DNA from: Halarcobacter sp.
Lineage (GTDB): Bacteria > Campylobacterota > Campylobacteria > Campylobacterales > Arcobacteraceae
Direction of reading: 5' to 3'
DNA: 64,000 nt
Assembly: GCA_048571215.1 (NCBI GenBank)
Contig: CP182352.1
Span: forward strand, 1,408,001-1,472,000
Shown: piece by piece, positions 52,109-64,000 of the stretch
Numbering within the stretch: position 1 is the stretch's first letter
Layout of the letters: each line of letters begins with the position of its first letter
Made by a program: the position numbers and the translations under genes
The notes under the pieces: model-generated
Database searches by the model: none
What the model saw: only the letters and a program-made list of their open reading frames with translations
What the model was told of the DNA's origin: nothing

Positions 52109-53408
52109 TATAATAAATATTATAAGGATTGATATAGATGGAAAAGAAAAAACAATTTGATTTTAATGAAGCTGTACAAGATTTACTTGCAGGTAAAAAT
52201 ATCAATGGTAAAGATGGAGTACTTGCTCCATTAGTAAAACAATTAGTTGAAGCTGCTTTAGAAGCAGAATTAGATTCTCATATAACTCAAGATGTATTTG
52301 CAGGAAATAAAAATAGAAAGAATGGTAAAAGCTCTAAAACAATAAAATCAACAAGTGGTTCCTTTGAATTGAATACTCCAAGAGATAGAACAGGTTCTTT
52401 TGAACCACAACTTGTAAAGAAAAACCAAACAACAATGTCTAATGAAATAGAAGAAAAGATATTATCTATGTATGGCTTAGGATTAAGCTATAGAGATATT
52501 ATAAAACATATTGAAGAGATATATCAAATACAATTATCAAGTGCAACAATAAGCACTATTACAGATAAAATTATAGATAAGGTAAAAGCTTGGCAAAGTA
52601 GACCTTTAGAAGCTATTTATCCATTTGTATGGCTTGATGCGATACATTATAAAATAAAAGATGGTGGGAAGTATGTGAGTAAAGCAGTTTACACAGTTTT
52701 AGGGATGGGAATTGATGGTAAAAAAGATATATTAGGATTATATTTATCCCAAAGTGAAGGAGCAAACTTCTGGCTTAGTGTTCTTACTGATTTAAATAAT
52801 AGAGGATTAGAAGATATACTAATTGCATCAGTAGATGGTCTTAAAGGCTTTCCTGAAGCTATTAAAACAATATATCCAAATACCGAAGTACAACTTTGTG
52901 TTGTACATCAAATTCGTAATTCATTGAAGTATGTAGCTTCTAAAGACCAAAAAGAGTTTATGAGAGATTTAAAACTTGTTTATCAAGCAACAACAAAAGA
53001 ACTTGCAGAAGATGAGCTTTTAAAACTAGATGAAAAATGGGGGAAAAGATATCCCATAGTACTTCAATCTTGGCAAAATAAATGGGAGAATTTATCTTAT
53101 TATTTTAAATATCCAAAAGAGATAAGAAAGATTATGTACACTACAAATATTATTGAATCTGTACATAGGCAATTTAGAAAATTAACCAAAACAAAAGGAG
53201 CTTTCCCTAATGAGAATTCACTTTTAAAATTGTTGTATATGGGAATATTAAATGCAAAAGTAAAATGGACTCAGCCAGTGCATAATTGGAGTTTAACAAT
53301 CTCCCAACTTGCTATATTTTTCGAAGGGAGATTGGATAATTATTTAGAGTTGTAACAAGTATGGATTTGTTACTTTAGGTGACTTGACACAGATTTTTGA
53401 ACGGTCTC
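52079..53408 (+). mobile_element. IS256-family insertion sequence, 1330 bp, 8-bp TSD
   Basis: Imperfect IRs GGGAGTGTTAGAAAATCTGTGTCA (52079-52102) and TGACACAGATTTTTGAACGGTCTC (53385-53408). Direct repeat AAGTCTTA at 52071-52078 and 53409-53416. Confidence 0.96.
52138..53355 (+). CDS. IS256-family (Mutator) DDE transposase
   Basis: PRDR.GSFEP, WQSRPL, WLDA, VDGLKGF, QLCVVH..RN, YTTN.IES. Confidence 0.96.
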   Translation: MEKKKQFDFNEAVQDLLAGKNINGKDGVLAPLVKQLVEAALEAELDSHITQDVFAGNKNRKNGKSSKTIKSTSGSFELNTPRDRTGSFEPQLVKKNQTTMSNEIEEKILSMYGLGLSYRDIIKHIEEIYQIQLSSATISTITDKIIDKVKAWQSRPLEAIYPFVWLDAIHYKIKDGGKYVSKAVYTVLGMGIDGKKDILGLYLSQSEGANFWLSVLTDLNNRGLEDILIASVDGLKGFPEAIKTIYPNTEVQLCVVHQIRNSLKYVASKDQKEFMRDLKLVYQATTKELAEDELLKLDEKWGKRYPIVLQSWQNKWENLSYYFKYPKEIRKIMYTTNIIESVHRQFRKLTKTKGAFPNENSLLKLLYMGILNAKVKWTQPVHNWSLTISQLAIFFEGRLDNYLEL

Positions 53409-55425: not shown

Positions 55426-56178
55426 ATGGAAAACTATTTTGATAAAGAGTTTGAATTAAGATTTTTTGAAATGAATAGATTAGGTGAAGCTTCGGCTATT
55501 TCTATATTAACTCTACTTCAAGAAACTGCCGCTGAACATTGCCGATATGCTGGGCATGACCTTTTATCTTTAATGTCTGAAAACCTTGGGTGGGTACTAC
55601 TTGCTGGTGCAATGGAAATGGAACGCTACCCACTTTATAAAGAAAAGATAATTATAAGAACATGGATATCAAAATATCATGCCATTAGGGGATTTAGAGA
55701 AAATATAATTTATGATGAAAACTACAATATAATAGGTAGAGCTAGAGGTTTGTGGGTATTTTACGATATAAAAAAAAGAAGACCTAAAAAAATACACCCT
55801 GATTTTTTAAAAAAATGGTCATCTTGTAAGACAATATCTCTTGAACATGATATAAGTAATAAGATTGAACCTCTTAATTCTTTTGAATGCAAAAAAGAGT
55901 TTAAAGTCAATATGTATGATACAGATACCAATAAACATGTTAATAATCTTAGATATCTACAATGGCTTATGGAATCAATTCCAGATGAGATATTAGACAA
56001 TTACTACTTGTATTTTATTGATGGACGTTTTATTTCAGAAGCTAATTATGGTGATTCTATTTTATCTTTAACAAATAAAGATGTTGAGGAAAACTCTTTT
56101 ATTCATACTATTCAAATAAAAGAAAGTGGCAAAGTTTGTGCTACTGGTAAATCAGTTTGGAAAAAAATACGAAAATAG
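55426..56178 (+). CDS. acyl-ACP thioesterase family protein
   Basis: LQETAAEH, WVL, DTDTNKHVNNLRY..W. Confidence 0.9.
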   Translation: MENYFDKEFELRFFEMNRLGEASAISILTLLQETAAEHCRYAGHDLLSLMSENLGWVLLAGAMEMERYPLYKEKIIIRTWISKYHAIRGFRENIIYDENYNIIGRARGLWVFYDIKKRRPKKIHPDFLKKWSSCKTISLEHDISNKIEPLNSFECKKEFKVNMYDTDTNKHVNNLRYLQWLMESIPDEILDNYYLYFIDGRFISEANYGDSILSLTNKDVEENSFIHTIQIKESGKVCATGKSVWKKIRK

Positions 56179-56233
56179 GTTTTTCTAGAAGTTGAACACT
56201 TCTATAATCTCGCTTGTACTCACTGCGTAAGAA

Positions 56234-56440
56234 CGCTTTCTTTACTTTTAGTGGTAAAAGTAAAACAAAAGCCACCAGACGCGTTGTTGAAGCTAAAGTT
56301 CCCTCCCACTTCACTTTTTAAAGCTAGCCTGCAAAACTCCTCGAAAAAGTGACATCTAGTCACTTTTCTCTCGTTAGACAGTTTCGGCTTTTTCCGCTTT
56401 AAAAAGCGAAGTACTCGGCTTCAACAAAGTCTGGACTAAA
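56234..56440 (-). repeat. divergent, inverted copy (R0) of the structured intergenic repeat
   Basis: Minus strand reads ...GAAGCCGAGT...AACTGTCT...GAGTTT...GAGGGAAC...GCTTC... then a terminal hairpin TTTACTTTTA-CCAC-TAAAAGTAAA. Motif order matches R1-R3. Confidence 0.75.
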
Positions 56441-56467
56441 ATTCCCTAGCCTTGAACTTTCTCATAC

Positions 56468-56848
56468 TATTTGAGTATTACACAAATCCAAACAAAATGG
56501 TACCAAAAAATGAAAAGGTCATTATCCCACCTTCCCGCATTTGAGAAGCCGAGTGTTTATTTTTGCTTTTCGGATGTAATCCTGCTTGCAGGCAAAAGTT
56601 TTTTAACTGTCTGAGTGTCAAAAACGTAACTAACTTACGTTTTAGCGAGTTTTGAAAAACAGAAAAGTGAAATAATAAGCGAGGGAACCTTCGGCTTCGA
56701 AACCCGCGGGATAATTTCTTTGCTACTTTCTTTTTCACAAAAGAAAGTCGGAATAAGTTAAAACGTACTGCAAAAGTTTATTTATACTCAAATATTTTGA
56801 TAATAGTATTACCCAAATATACATAATATATTTATCATTTTGTTAAAC
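56468..56848 (+). repeat. structured intergenic repeat copy R1 (intact; candidate ncRNA or MITE-like element)
   Basis: Homologous to 59272-59505 + 60806-60936 and to 63895-64000. Nested inverted repeats. Outer IR TATTTGAGTAT (56468-56478) / ATACTCAAATA (56784-56794). Confidence 0.9.
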
Positions 56849-57064
56849 AATAAAATGTTATTTAAAGTTAAGTTTTTCACCTTTAACATACATTATGTAT
56901 ATTAAAGTACTAAATATAAACATAAAATATATATAAAGATTATAACTTATAATAAAAATATATAGAAAAAAATATCATATTATGTAATGTTTTTTCTATA
57001 AAGATGTATAAGATGAGCTTTCTTTGTAAATATATAATAAAGTAGTATATTTAAGTACTTTATT

Positions 57065-57095
57065 TATATAATGTATATTCAATAAATAGTTAGAC
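57065..57095 (+). other. attI-like cassette entry site with TATAAT (module 1)
   Basis: TATATAATGTATATTCAATAAATAGTT, 22/27 identical to the sequence ending at 61159. Ends in core GTTAGAC. Confidence 0.55.
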
Positions 57096-57109
57096 ACAAA
57101 GGAGTAGTA

Positions 57110-57757
57110 TTGCCATTAAAGCCAGATATAATAGAACTGATTGACAATTATTGTACTAAAGATTTGCCAGGAGATTTACAGTGGCATATTGATAGATTTA
57201 ATTTCATTAAAAATACAGATTTACAAAATAAAATAGGCAGAGCATATTATAGTTCTCGTTATATGAGTAAATTAATGGAAGCACTAAGAGGAACTGGGGA
57301 TGAACTTCATCCATTTGTTAAATTCCAAATATTACAATATGCATCTATTTATGAAGCGGTTATAACTTACTTACTTTGGGATACATTTAAAGAACATGAT
57401 GAAGTAATACAATTACAAACACATAAAACATATAAACCAGTTCATGCTTTAGGAAGTAAAACTAGCATAAAATATGATGGAGAGGATGTTTTCACTTGTG
57501 TATATCGTGATGTAAAAACACATAAAAACTCAATTTCTTTTCCAAGCAAAGTAGATTGTGCAGTTAGAATTGGTTTTTTAAATGAAACATATGCTGAGGA
57601 TATTAAACATATTTATATGCTTAGAAATTTAGCACACATTGAAACAGAAGCTGATAAAAAAATTGAAGTTGAAATTGAACATTCAAAACTAGGATATTGG
57701 AGATTAAAACCTTTTCTTGATGATATTGTAGCTTTTTTTGAAGAAAACAATAGCTAA
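57110..57757 (+). CDS. cassette 1 gene A, hypothetical (possible HEPN-like)
   Basis: AGGAG RBS plus TTG start; helical, YASIYE and C-terminal LRNLAH. Confidence 0.7.
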   Translation: MPLKPDIIELIDNYCTKDLPGDLQWHIDRFNFIKNTDLQNKIGRAYYSSRYMSKLMEALRGTGDELHPFVKFQILQYASIYEAVITYLLWDTFKEHDEVIQLQTHKTYKPVHALGSKTSIKYDGEDVFTCVYRDVKTHKNSISFPSKVDCAVRIGFLNETYAEDIKHIYMLRNLAHIETEADKKIEVEIEHSKLGYWRLKPFLDDIVAFFEENNS

Positions 57758-57776
57758 TGAACATTAAAGAGATAAT

Positions 57777-58577
57777 ATGACAATTGAAGATATTCAGAAG
57801 CTAATTAACATTTATAATAAAGGTATAAAAACCTATAAAGAAATGTGCGACCATATTTTAAAACAAGATACAAAAATTAATAATGAATTATTTTTACTAT
57901 TATTAGCAGTATCAGACTCAATGGAATCATTAGCAATATTAGGCAACTTCAATAAAATGAGAGATTGTTATGTTGTCTCAAGAACAATTTATGAAACTAC
58001 TTTAAATATTCTGCTTATTTTATCCACAGATTTTGAATCAATGGATGAAATGACTAAATATACATATGATGAAATTGAGCAAGAAGATTCTCGTTCAATT
58101 ACTACCGACAGTGAAGCAGTATTTTTTGCTTTTGATGGAATAAAGCATACTGTTGGATTTGCTAAAAATAATCCTTTTAAAGTAAGAAATCCACGTTCTT
58201 GGACAAAACATAAAATACAGAATAGAATAAATCTTATTGATAAAAAATATGGAAAAGTTGTATCTCGTTCTTTACAAGTAGCTCACTTGACAATTTATAG
58301 AACAAGCTCAAATATTGCTCATGGAACTCTTTATGGAATGCTTCAAGCTATGGGTTTAATTCATGAAAAAGAGATCAAAGAGTTTACAGATATTAGTATG
58401 ATAGAACATAATTTTCAAGTAATTACTACGTTATTACTAACTATATCTCAAAGTGTTTATGGATTGACATATGCATTAGATAAAGAACTAGGGTTAGAAG
58501 AATTTGAAAAAAGTTTTTATACTAGTTTAGAAGAATTTATAAATGAAGGCAAACAATTATTGTCTAACAAAACCTAG
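57777..58577 (+). CDS. cassette 1 gene B, DUF5677-like protein
   Basis: SRTIYE and IYRTSSNIAHG motifs; 3' end overlaps attC. Confidence 0.65.
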   Translation: MTIEDIQKLINIYNKGIKTYKEMCDHILKQDTKINNELFLLLLAVSDSMESLAILGNFNKMRDCYVVSRTIYETTLNILLILSTDFESMDEMTKYTYDEIEQEDSRSITTDSEAVFFAFDGIKHTVGFAKNNPFKVRNPRSWTKHKIQNRINLIDKKYGKVVSRSLQVAHLTIYRTSSNIAHGTLYGMLQAMGLIHEKEIKEFTDISMIEHNFQVITTLLLTISQSVYGLTYALDKELGLEEFEKSFYTSLEEFINEGKQLLSNKT

Positions 58578-58632
58578 GAGAGAAATAAGTTACCCTAGCG
58601 GGCAAACTTATTTCTCAAGTCAAACGTTATAA
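58562..58632 (+). other. integron attC site 1 (71 bp)
   Basis: GTCTAAC...GAGAAATAAGTT-ACCC-TAGC-GGG-CA-AACTTATTTCTC...GTTATAA: inverse core, central palindrome, core. Confidence 0.85.
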
Positions 58633-58643
58633 ATAAGGAATAA

Positions 58644-59204
58644 TTGATGAATAAAAAATATTCAATTGTTATAGTGATTTGTTTTTTAATTTTTTGGTTT
58701 GTAAAACTTTTAGATTCTACGGGAACAATAGATACTATAAAATTAGCTATGAATGATAAATTTAATTATAAAATAGAAACATTACTTACACAAGCGGATG
58801 ATGAGGATATGGTAAAAATATTAAATAGTTTTATGAAAAAAGTTCAAAAAGATTATGCCAATAAAACTACAAGTGAAACGGTATTATTAAGTGCAAATCA
58901 AAAAAACAAACATGTAGTGTATAAATTTCAAATGAATTATGATGACCTATTACAATCTGTACCAAATAAAAGAAAGTTATCAAATAAAATTAAAAATTTA
59001 GTATATAAAGATATATGTTCCCAAGGAATATTATCCTTTATTGTTGAAAATAAGGCAGTAAGTTTTGAGTATATTTATTATGATTCTTTATCAAAAGAGC
59101 AAAATAGATATTTGATTCAGAGTGATGATTGTAAAATATGGGAAGATAATAATTTAGTATTTTCATTAACTAAAAAAGCGAAAAATTTTATAAATAGTCT
59201 TTAG
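58644..59204 (+). CDS. cassette 2 gene, N-terminally anchored or exported hypothetical protein
   Basis: AAGGA RBS right after attC; N-terminal hydrophobic segment. Confidence 0.7.
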   Translation: MMNKKYSIVIVICFLIFWFVKLLDSTGTIDTIKLAMNDKFNYKIETLLTQADDEDMVKILNSFMKKVQKDYANKTTSETVLLSANQKNKHVVYKFQMNYDDLLQSVPNKRKLSNKIKNLVYKDICSQGILSFIVENKAVSFEYIYYDSLSKEQNRYLIQSDDCKIWEDNNLVFSLTKKAKNFINSL

Positions 59205-59514
59205 ATATAATATTTATAACGAATCAGTGAAATAACACCCCCAGAGAATGAATTTCCACTTTTATAATAATTATTGAGTATCACACCAATTCAAATAAAA
59301 TGGTATCAAAAAATGCAAAGGTCAATTTCCTACCTTTCCGCATTTTAGAAGCCGAGTGTTTATTTGTCTCTTTTGAAAACAAGTGACTAAACTGTTTGAA
59401 GCGTAAAGAAACGTTCTGGGAGAACGTTTTAGCAAGTTTTTAGGCACTCAAAAGGGATGAATAATAAGCGAGGGAACCTTCGGCTTCGAAACCTGTGGGA
59501 TAATTCGTATAATA

Positions 59515-59740
59515 AAATATTGGAAATATGATAGTATATTTTCATAGAGTTCAATAGAAGATGATATATTGTGTGGGTGGTTGAAGCAATTAAAAATAAT
59601 TTTAATTAGCTTGTAAAGAAGTTCAATAGTTATACTTCAAATTTGAGTGGCAACAAGAACAGTTTTATAACTAGTTCGTATTTACGAGTCTAAAGTTTGT
59701 ATGACGAAATATCAGGTAGGAATTTTATTCCTACCCTAAC
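59515..59740 (+). ncRNA. predicted IS110 bridge RNA (ends approximate)
   Basis: 5' hairpin; target loop with GGGTGGTT (59575-82) and AAAGAAGTT (59615-23); donor loop with GTGGCAAC (59647-54) and TACGAGT (59683-89); 3' hairpin GGTAGGAAT/ATTCCTACC. Confidence 0.85.
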
Positions 59741-59772
59741 GAACTCTTTATATTAATACAAAGGTTCTAGAT

Positions 59773-60756
59773 ATGTATTCTATCGGATTAGATATAAGTA
59801 AGTCAACAATTAATATTTATATCCCTATCAATGATTTAGATATTCAAATATCAAATAATTTGAAATCACTTAAAGGTTTTTATTCTAAGTTAAAAAAACT
59901 TTATAAAAAAGATATAGATAAACTTGTATTTGTTTTTGAACCTACAGCTAATTATTCCTTTTTAATTAAAAAGTTTTGTTCTGAAAAAAGTATACACTGT
60001 TTTATTGTTAATCCAAAGAAAAGTGCTAACTTTGCTAAAGCAATTGGTCAAAGAAATAAAACTGACCTTTTAGATGCTAGAATGTTATCTCAGATGATAG
60101 TTACTGCAAGAAAAAATCAGATTAAAATACCCATTATTAATCCTTATGCCGAGGAATTAAAAGAGCTTATTACATATTATAAATTTATATCAAAAATTAA
60201 AACTCAAAATAAAAATCATTTGGAAGCTTTAGTTTCAAAAGATGCTTCATCTATTATAATTAAATCATTAAGAAAAGATATAAAATCATTTGAAAAAAAA
60301 GAAAAAGATATTCTTATTGAGATAAAAAAAGTTATTGCAAAAGACAAAAATTTACATAATGCATTTTTAAATATCCAAACTATAAAAGGCATAGGAGAAT
60401 TATCTTCAATTATATTATTACACCATTTTATACAATATCCTGATACAAATCAAAAGCAAATTGTTTCATTAGCTGGATTAGATCCAGTTAGTAGAGATTC
60501 TGGTTCATCAATAAAAGGAAAAACAAAAATATCAAAATCTGGTTCAAAATTATGTAGGGGTACATTATTTATGGCAGTAATGACAGCGATACAATACAAT
60601 GAAGAATTAAAAATATTTTATAATAGATTAAAAGAGAATGGCAAACATACTACTGTAGCACAAATTGCTGTAATGCGAAAAATGATTGTAATTGCTCACT
60701 CATTATATAAAAATAATAATATATATGACCCTAATAAATTTAAAAGTATATCATAA
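59773..60756 (+). CDS. IS110-family DEDD recombinase/transposase
   Basis: IGLDISK (D), FEPT (E), KTDLLDA (DD), TIKGIG, GLDP..RDSGSS (catalytic Ser), ISKSG, AVMRK. Confidence 0.96.
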   Translation: MYSIGLDISKSTINIYIPINDLDIQISNNLKSLKGFYSKLKKLYKKDIDKLVFVFEPTANYSFLIKKFCSEKSIHCFIVNPKKSANFAKAIGQRNKTDLLDARMLSQMIVTARKNQIKIPIINPYAEELKELITYYKFISKIKTQNKNHLEALVSKDASSIIIKSLRKDIKSFEKKEKDILIEIKKVIAKDKNLHNAFLNIQTIKGIGELSSIILLHHFIQYPDTNQKQIVSLAGLDPVSRDSGSSIKGKTKISKSGSKLCRGTLFMAVMTAIQYNEELKIFYNRLKENGKHTTVAQIAVMRKMIVIAHSLYKNNNIYDPNKFKSIS

Positions 60757-61132
60757 ATATTAGATTTAAATATTTTATATTTTATCATTTTTTAAGGTGG
60801 CAACTTCTTTGCTACTTTCTTTTTAGAAAAGAAAGTCGAGAAAACCAAGAGGTACAGCAAAAGTTTATTTACACTCAAATATTTTGAAAATAGTTTTACC
60901 CAAACACAACATAATATATTTATCATTTTGTTAAACTATCAAGATTTTCACCAAATAGTCATACAAAATGATAAGATATTAAGGATATACCTTGATAATC
61001 TAACATAAAAAATGTTCTACTTTTTCTTATATTATTTTGTATTTTATTAAATTTAGACTATTTAAGGCTTATTTGAGCTAATATCTTTACATTTTTAATG
61101 TTAAGATATTAGATGTTTTTATATATTATTTA

Positions 61133-61163
61133 TATATAATGTATTATTAATAAGAAGTTGTAT
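61133..61163 (+). other. attI-like cassette entry site with TATAAT (module 2)
   Basis: TATATAATGTATTATTAATAAGAAGTT followed by GTAT; homologous to 57065-57091. Confidence 0.55.
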
Positions 61164-62362: not shown

Positions 62363-62372
62363 GGCGTTATTC

Positions 62373-62442
62373 ATACAACAAAAACGAGGAGACCAATAAT
62401 TTACCCTTGCGGGAAAATTATTGCTCACGACAAACGTTAACT
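62373..62442 (+). other. integron attC site 2 (70 bp)
   Basis: ATACAAC...GAG-AC-CAATAATTT-ACCC-TTGC-GGG-AAAATTATTG-CTC...GTTAACT; homologous to attC 1 with compensatory changes. Confidence 0.85.
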
Positions 62443-63860: not shown

Positions 63861-63894
63861 ATACGAGAGAATTAATCTCCACTTTTAAAATAGT

Positions 63895-64000
63895 TATTGA
63901 GTATTACACCAACAAAAACAAAATGGTACCAAAAAATGCAAAGGTCAATTTCCCCTCTTCCCGCATTTGAGAAGCCGAGTGTTTATTTGTCTCTTTTGAA
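63895..64000 (+). repeat. structured repeat copy R3 (5' part, cut by the window edge)
   Basis: TTGAGTATTACACC...AAAATGGTACCAAAAAATGCAAAGGTC...CCCGCATTTGAGAAGCCGAGTGTTTATTTGTCTCTTTTGAA. Confidence 0.92.

Follow-up and report, generated by a model that had tools for sequence, protein, structure and literature searches.

What is the large structured repeat at positions 56468-56848 of this Halarcobacter chromosome, and in what form is its fold selected? An earlier note took the repeat for a structured RNA, a possible ribozyme or a non-autonomous mobile element of no named family. We have analysed the 64,000-nucleotide stretch that contains it (the window; G000:C1:1408001-1472000, where G000 is the genome, one contig of 3.61 Mb), together with copies in the rest of this genome, in relatives and in distant bacteria. 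The flagged stretch belongs to a non-coding folded repeat that has about 50 full copies here and whose presence is polymorphic.

Results

A multi-domain module with many copies in one genome

The modules of the window and the parts of R1 are as follows; the beta/gamma model is a covariance model of distant copies that is described below.

56234-56441, - strand: R0, an A-type module, inverted homologue of R1 (beta/gamma model match at 56232-56411, E 1.2e-7)
~56236-56285, - strand: pseudoknot tail within R0
56442-56515, + strand: spacer and B leader separating the head-to-head R0 and R1
~56471-56498, + strand: sigma70-like hexamer pair in the spacer and B leader, found by eye; the promoter scan flags none
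56516-56750, + strand: R1, a B-type module with closing stems, three-way junction, rod and tail
56575-56594, no strand assigned: optional 20-nt mini-insert, present at several different positions in 8 module loci
56577-56753, + strand: match of R1 to the beta/gamma model, E 2.3e-6
56605-56651, + strand: conserved internal loop enclosing the variable tip hairpin; invariant columns in 36 distant copies
56621-56643, + strand: tip hairpin, 96% paired with 61 compensatory cells in 28 B copies
59230-59505, + strand: 5' part of R2, a solitary-B-type leader and B module as far as an IS110 insertion
59362-59506, + strand: match of the R2 5' part to the beta/gamma model, E 4.9e-5
60806-61160, + strand: 3' part of R2 (pseudoknot hairpin and tail), AT-rich segment and second attI-like site
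63866-64000, + strand: R3, the start of another B module, which runs past the window into a B-A-B array

The repeat described earlier is real, but its unit is larger than the flagged stretch: the inverted homologue R0 lies directly upstream, and a pseudoknot takes in the 3' hairpin. Each module is a multi-domain unit of 200-240 nt. The element was also rightly called GC-richer than its surroundings, with 32% GC in the flagged span and 39-40% in module cores versus 28% in both window and genome. Iterated profiles gave 71 non-overlapping matches in G000, and 22 A-type modules (including R0) and 28 B-type modules (including R1) were full length. Median identity is 76% among A and 73% among B modules, and no pair exceeds 96%. 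The two types adjoin in alternating inverted, BIME-like arrays of up to six modules that lie between genes; solitary B copies with their own leader are also present. The roughly 50 full copies, their polymorphic presence and their lack of coding capacity support the suggestion of a non-autonomous repeat. At G000:C1:267653-267900, upstream of rpsL, a truncated A module passes into the apparent left end of an IS110-type element that has no recombinase.

By BLAST, the element is present in 17 of 24 genomes of the same genus and in 0 of 16 genomes of other families, and a named Arcobacter record (L075) holds a B module with the same tail as R1. Directly behind rplT, a module was found in three of 22 genomes, namely G000, G012 and G002 (the last by eye, at a contig end). 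The thioesterase site of the window was located in two of the five relatives searched. One of them (G002) retains the B leader alone and the other the tail hairpin alone; the relatives are too diverged at orthologous sites to yield clean empty sites.

Folding and covariation of the rod

All 16 stem strings of the earlier note are present in R1 and R2, and those that had been given a position are found there. The + strand of 56460-56850 folds more stably than its shuffles (z -4.25; 0 of 100 shuffles equal it), and the - strand gave a z of -1.89. Across the 28 B copies, pairing was 89% for the closing stem, 90% for the 3' hairpin and 94% for the 3-bp knot stem. The rod helix reached only 57% because three arm types align out of register. 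Matching by arm type is therefore the fairer test, and here both arms match in 27 of 27 classifiable B copies. Since the arms of G000 are limited to three matched types, they count as about three events. It is the distant relatives that supply the real support for covariation. A single arm type is found with three different tip hairpins among the B copies, so modules are mosaics.

Two details of the earlier description fared less well. The outermost stem, 56468/56794, is not conserved: it is paired in 73% of cells with one compensatory change, and is near-intact in 6 of 28 B copies. The constancy of the linker motifs in R0, R1 and R2 stood in part: GMRAGTT is inexact in R0, and the core has diverged in many A copies.

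In the alignment of 28 distant sequences behind the beta/gamma model, 86.9% of cells were paired versus 72.4% after shuffling. Both sides changed in 32 of 41 pairs, and slid partners gave at most 55%, a comparison in which the structure, drawn from one member, is favoured over the slid controls. The folding excess of the + strand, the distant covariation and the triad covariation described next all support selection on a folded single strand, as had been proposed.

A 3' pseudoknot with a third strand

The tail of R1 has the following parts.

56712-56748, + strand: H-type pseudoknot with third strand
56712-14/56735-37, + strand: knot stem 1, with one mismatch in R1
56715-21, + strand: knot third strand
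56725-34/56739-48, + strand: knot stem 2

The loop of the 3' hairpin pairs with bases upstream of a pyrimidine run, and many covarying stem types are seen. Stem 1 measures 4-7 bp in 70 of 88 distant tails, and the third knot loop, which crosses it, is 0-3 nt long in 68 of the 88. The lower knot stem is 5-6 bp in 29 of 40 distant tails. The pyrimidine run mirrors the purine strand in parallel register, with C opposite G and T opposite A, and this fits the requirement of a major-groove triple helix.

Among 20 tail types we counted 13 C.G-C triads versus 5.2 expected, and the antiparallel register gave 5. With 26 tail types (87 parsed tails) the count was 13 versus 4.5 expected (p 1.5e-4); A-type tails were omitted from this test because they have no internal G. 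An independent metagenome set, with 84 parsed of 129 distinct matches and 22 tail types, gave 19 triads versus 5.4 expected (p 5e-5). These p values overstate the case because related tail sequences are not independent; the support comes from the G shifting among several positions and the C following it. Evidence for selection on a triplex of this kind, whether in RNA or in DNA, is rare, and the covarying base triples of this natural pseudoknot in a bacterial repeat provide it.

The module is widespread

A pattern scan of named genomes returned 127 stretches, of which 43 parse as full modules, in Gallionella, Sulfuricella, Azonexus, Noviherbaspirillum and gammaproteobacterial MAGs, among others. 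The remainder either match by chance or are divergent forms, for example Blautia copies without a tail. At L027, L028 and other Blautia loci, a rod core without the pseudoknot tail is followed by short tandem repeats.

The covariance model was built from 28 beta- and gamma-proteobacterial copies and contains no Arcobacteraceae sequence. When it was run on 40-64 kb of the window, R0, R1 and R2 ranked first (E 1e-7 to 5e-5) and the next match had an E value of 0.25. As a model without any Arcobacteraceae sequence recovers all three, the family is widespread. The same model matches 33 of 141 genomes in the class draw of G045 and 2 of 101 in the own-phylum draw, and it finds at least 150 places in G041 alone.

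In metagenomes, 118 of 122 pattern loci contained a module and 87 of 108 adjacent module pairs were head-to-head; in G041 the pairs are tail-to-tail. Head-to-head pairs of Gallionellaceae are either empty or placed around 0.8-2.2 kb of cargo, for instance an AAA/RloB pair or a RelA/SpoT-domain gene. T-rich spaced repeats lie upstream of 44 of 96 distant copies. Plasmid and phage collections held no similar DNA, and viral contigs gave three pattern matches, two of them full modules. Three Gallionellaceae doublets (L219, L220 and L231) bear small REP-like palindromes on their inner sides and share a 12-nt motif, possibly a promoter, upstream of the cargo gene. At L218 and L237 of G041, long hexamer tandem repeats stand immediately 5' of modules.

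Terminal B modules lead into attI-like sites

Downstream of R1 and R2 the window holds the following features.

56751-57048, + strand: B tail linker, then AT-rich segment up to the attI-like site
57049-57096, + strand: attI-like site with crossover core 57089-57091; the motif is as beside the genome's single intI
57110-59204, + strand: three co-directional cassette-like ORFs (215, 266 and 186 aa)
58562-58632, + strand: attC-like site
61157-61159, + strand: core of the second attI-like site, at the end of the R2 3' part
62368-62442, + strand: attC-like site 3' of a kinase-like ORF

Terminal B modules lead into an AT-rich segment that ends in an attI-like motif. The motif also stands upstream, divergently, of the single integron integrase of G000 (TIGR02249, 398 bits); across the genus, 7 of 9 integrase loci have it upstream of intI. 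G000 has 20 attI-like sites: 14 lie 213-366 nt behind a B module, one lies beside intI and five are elsewhere. By chance, about 0.2% per site would be expected to fall behind a B module. In relatives, 6 of 18 module loci show this order of B module and attI, as does the rplT locus of G012. The attI-like site is retained in both relatives at the orthologous thioesterase position, and different genes follow it there. The mutual relationship of the attI-bearing segments was judged by eye.

An attC-like fold follows 8 of 61 ORFs downstream of attI-like sites versus 4 of 400 controls; an attC scan with settings that were too strict gave 0 sites. None of the nine intI loci of the genus contains a module, and 13 of 22 genomes, including the module-rich G012 and G023, have no full intI match. 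The module itself was considered as an attC site and rejected, as inspection of the alignment found no paired outer core boxes, no 5-6 nt spacers and no inner boxes. Five sequencing runs covered a small share of the region, all of them as contigs, with depth at or near zero over the modules. Contigs that diverge in sequence near 57097-57103 hint weakly at cassette exchange. Additionally, serial attI-like sites without modules occur in cassette-like regions at G000:C1:896499-904745 and 1938556-1940116.

IS110 elements and other insertions target the modules

R2 is interrupted by an IS110 element, the parts of which are these.

59506-60805, + strand: IS110 element, inserted at the start of the R2 pseudoknot
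59506-59772, + strand: non-coding left end
~59572-82 and 59613-23, + strand: target guides
~59646-55 and 59681-89, + strand: donor guides
59773-60756, + strand: recombinase

All seven full IS110 copies of G000 lie inside modules, four at the start of the knot and three in the conserved internal loop. Their non-coding left ends have a common scaffold, in which short variable segments match the element's own target flanks and donor junctions. The guide segments of bridge RNAs match target and donor likewise, and IS621 is described as inserting in REP (PMC11208160). Among 21 further IS110 loci of the genus, eight are in modules and two target a small palindrome of the B-leader type. Two more guide programmes directed against the module core were found in G002 (L399 and L412). 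G000:388000-388165 is a hybrid module: its left target belongs to one IS110 and its right target to another. The IS110 set provides natural examples of one bridge scaffold reprogrammed for several sites in the same repeat. L411 and L415 of G021 are IS110 relatives, and one further guide programme of the set is aimed at the small solitary-B-leader palindrome.

Could IS110 be what mobilises the repeat? This was ruled out, as it interrupts modules and is an intruder that targets them. Nor is the module an IS110 bridge RNA: its loops are conserved rather than variable, and the bridge region is the separate segment 59506-59772.

A 35-kb island with a tyrosine integrase (G000:C1:2205763-2240383) splits another module. 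Mini-inserts of two kinds, 20 and 23 nt long, are found repeatedly at differing module positions, each after a T run. Modules draw other mobile DNA of several kinds: IS110 elements, mini-inserts, an integrative island and cargo genes, to which Arcobacteraceae add attI-bearing segments. The right end of the island carries a tRNA 3' fragment, ORFs resembling a nucleotidyltransferase and a relaxase were picked out in it by eye, and its integration spot in the module resembles a tRNA anticodon loop. It also contains an ORF nearly identical to an IS256-family transposase at 52138-53355 of the window. The two mini-inserts share a short hairpin core and are inserted without duplication; the 23-nt form also occurs at three sites outside modules.

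No recurrent enzyme accompanies the modules

The earlier note proposed a search for a transposase or reverse transcriptase gene at other copies, and none recurs. Searches for Y1 genes covered 30 genomes; five beta-proteobacterial genomes gave 18 Y1 loci and the genus gave 19, and none of these has a module within 1.5 kb. The flank of the only Y1 gene in G000 is of another, TIR-like kind. In TIRtrons, long repeats box a Y1 gene (PMC3733652), and no such arrangement was seen among the Y1 loci examined. Reverse transcriptase genes are absent from G000; among 15 such loci of the genus, one lies about 1.2 kb from a module. Finally, 170 ORFs neighbouring modules (95 of 129, 7 cargo ORFs and 68 of 124) contained no recurring enzyme, only isolated IS481-like, DDE, XerC-like and HNH matches.

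Loop types of the distant copies

Among 212 distinct core matches, a set that includes chance matches, the central hairpin carries a GNA triloop in 99 and a GNRA tetraloop in 2, the side hairpin carries them in 78 and 3, and a UUCG loop was seen once. GNA triloops are about 30-fold commoner than RNA tetraloops in distant copies; the module alignments show none in Arcobacteraceae copies. Such triloops are specially stable in DNA, and a knot loop of 0-3 nt is short for A-form RNA. Together, the triloops and the very short knot loops favour folded single-stranded DNA. The + strand is the better folder in 46 of 50 copies when treated as RNA and in 43 of 50 when treated as DNA, a result that does not discriminate. 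We lean towards a single-stranded DNA fold as the selected form rather than RNA, with DNA ahead, not decisively.

Discussion

We have proposed a model that builds on the fold, the knot, the triad covariation, the doublets, the polymorphism, the IS110 targeting and the attI linkage. We give about even chances to the reading that R1 is a module of a widespread, non-autonomous extragenic repeat of REP/REPIN-like kind, which acts through a single-stranded DNA form and serves as a docking site. The selected form would be a transient fold of single-stranded DNA. A trans-acting enzyme for such DNA, likeliest of the HUH type and encoded away from the copies, may recognise the conserved loop and the junction, and it may copy or move modules and doublets, sometimes together with flanking DNA. 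The triplex knot could mark or stabilise the end of the module, for instance by stalling DNA synthesis. Behind B modules of this lineage an attI/promoter segment may hitch-hike, which would give a single chromosomal integrase many dispersed landing sites. Against this model stand the failure to find a mobiliser and the Arcobacteraceae copies without GNA triloops; a 5-bp lower stem that a single base would have to cross also suits RNA geometry better than DNA.

The last point belongs to the most serious competitor, a multi-copy RNA, which we regard as possible but somewhat doubtful. Here each copy would be transcribed from its own 5' promoter, a host protein would bind through the internal loop, as the TwoAYGGAY tips may bind CsrA, and a telomerase/ENE-like pseudoknot triplex would protect the 3' end. 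Recombination or carriage as cargo would account for the spread, as a secondary matter. Folding is strand-asymmetric, G-U-type variation is seen, and U.A-U and C.G-C triads both occur in the H-type topology, as this reading would have it. The AYGGAY loops of sibling elements presumably resemble CsrA sites, an RNA-level signal. Moreover, sigma70-like hexamers can be seen by eye in B leaders, the leader alone persists at the orthologous site of G002, and ffRNA-1 (see below) was handled as RNA by Stav 2019 (PMC6429828). However, the promoter scan flagged nothing at the heads of R0 or R1, the promoter-like hexamers are not retained in G106 (by eye), the triloops outnumber RNA tetraloops in distant copies, and copies tolerate disruption by IS110, the island and the mini-inserts. 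The suggestion of a ribozyme has nothing to support it, and a self-cleaving ribozyme was set aside since Rfam gives no match to a known catalytic core.

Two further explanations seem improbable to us, each to a similar degree. Modules might be passive cargo of DDE-type miniature transposons, whose terminal repeats would suffice for movement while the fold was kept for another reason. An 11-bp inverted repeat does bracket R1, and solitary B copies have a sharp left boundary in common. However, only 6 of 28 copies keep the bracketing repeat intact and a single compensatory change was seen in it, the right end passes into either an A module or an attI segment, and distant copies share no terminal repeat (by eye); the module itself was rejected as a DDE-type MITE because it has no conserved terminal inverted repeats and its outer stem is near-intact in those 6 of 28 copies. 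Alternatively, the integron integrase might be what moves modules, which it would treat either as non-coding cassettes or as a folded recombination site of an unusual kind. The tight linkage to attI-like sites speaks for this, as does a word like the attI core that ends B tails where downstream sequences diverge, and complex single-stranded DNA folds could be unusual attC sites (Weinberg 2017). Against it, modules do not have the attC box spacing, genomes rich in modules have no full intI match, no intI locus contains a module, and cassettes do not stack as head-to-head doublets.

A wider form of our preferred model, which we put forward only tentatively, is that modules are the ends of an undescribed gene-docking system, a single-stranded DNA pseudoknot-triplex with tips that can be swapped across phyla. 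In Arcobacteraceae this system may have captured an attI/promoter segment and spread it to at least 14 satellite sites around the chromosome. Together these sites would form a distributed integron on which a single integrase acts in trans, and IS110 elements with at least four different programmes would use modules as safe harbours. Many attI copies behind a repeat would alter the view of the integron as a single locus, and would matter for the way in which Arcobacteraceae gain defence and accessory genes. Integron mobilisation units, MITE-flanked integrons and CALINs also link non-coding repeats to integron segments without an integrase. The present case differs in that at least 14 attI-like copies lie each behind one repeat, on one chromosome with one intI.

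Is the module already known? No Rfam model matched in the window, with only chance-level matches on 56150-56900, and none matched the module at 20 distant loci. Even so, the statement that it belongs to no named family is probably too strong. It is probably a motif that has been described but barely characterised, and we consider it rather likely, from the description and not from sequence, that this motif is ffRNA-1 of Stav 2019. In that paper (PMC6429828), ffRNA-1 comes from an intergenic region of Arcobacter sp. L and has 4460 examples, often in multiple copies, mostly in beta- and gamma-proteobacteria with few in epsilon-proteobacteria; it has no gene association and is a likely part of a selfish element, and its structure is a long stem, in which internal loops are conserved, and a second stem. 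The module likewise is multi-copy, has no common gene context, is found mainly in beta- and gamma-proteobacteria with few epsilon-proteobacteria, and has a long stem with conserved internal loops and a second stem. It differs in its pseudoknot, triplex, inverted doublets, attI linkage and targeting by IS110, none of which is mentioned in the published text consulted. HRC-4 of the same study (14 examples, Arcobacter only) fits less well. A term search of the main texts of PMC11109978 and PMC8632094 did not find the ffRNA name. In the literature searched, which mostly excluded subscription papers, no paper on IS110 targeting of modules or on the attI link was found, and these two are the parts for which we found no precedent.

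The outer scaffold is also common to TwoAYGGAY (RF01731; PMC2864571): closing stems, junction motif, side hairpin and pseudoknot-triplex tail were common to all four loci inspected. TwoAYGGAY-type loci with the module scaffold comprise L052, L450 and L451, which match RF01731, and L449, a model match; L052 is a head-to-head doublet of a TwoAYGGAY-type and a module-type element. The module differs at the tip of the rod, where it has a conserved internal loop and not two AYGGAY hairpins. RF01731 gave 0 matches at E<=1 in G000, as in the control genomes, and none in the window. Two unexplained motifs (TwoAYGGAY and, probably, ffRNA-1) can thus be tied to one scaffold, and an orphan repeat with thousands of copies across Proteobacteria has a testable anatomy.

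By its behaviour the module is of the REP/BIME kind, but by its defining features it is not a member. Like REP, BIME and REPIN sequences (PMC3733652), it is extragenic, has a high copy number, forms alternately inverted mosaic arrays with linkers and is a target of IS110-family elements. Unlike them, it is 5-10 times longer, has several domains with a pseudoknot and carries no GTAG/CGTC tag; it is therefore not a 20-40 bp palindrome tagged GTAG or CGTC. Nor does it flank a cognate Y1 (RAYT/TIRYT) gene, as none of the 18 and none of the 19 Y1 loci shows this. BoxC/PIT/TMECO (PMC4666352) offers another likeness, that of a multi-copy bacterial repeat with three tracts in intrastrand triplex register, linked to variable loci. 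However, TMECO is short, G/C-rich and of the purine motif, whereas the tracts of the module are A/T-rich with covarying C.G-C positions and are embedded in a pseudoknot that ends a 200-nt fold.

Matches to Flavo-1 (RF01705) and to the Betaproteobacteria toxic sRNA (RF02278) were rejected as candidates because they fall on other sequences. Three Flavo-1-like sequences, unrelated to the module, lie at G000:C1:2217803-2217866, 721735-721797 and 2215815-2215877; the best scored 41.7 bits with a cut-off of 42.
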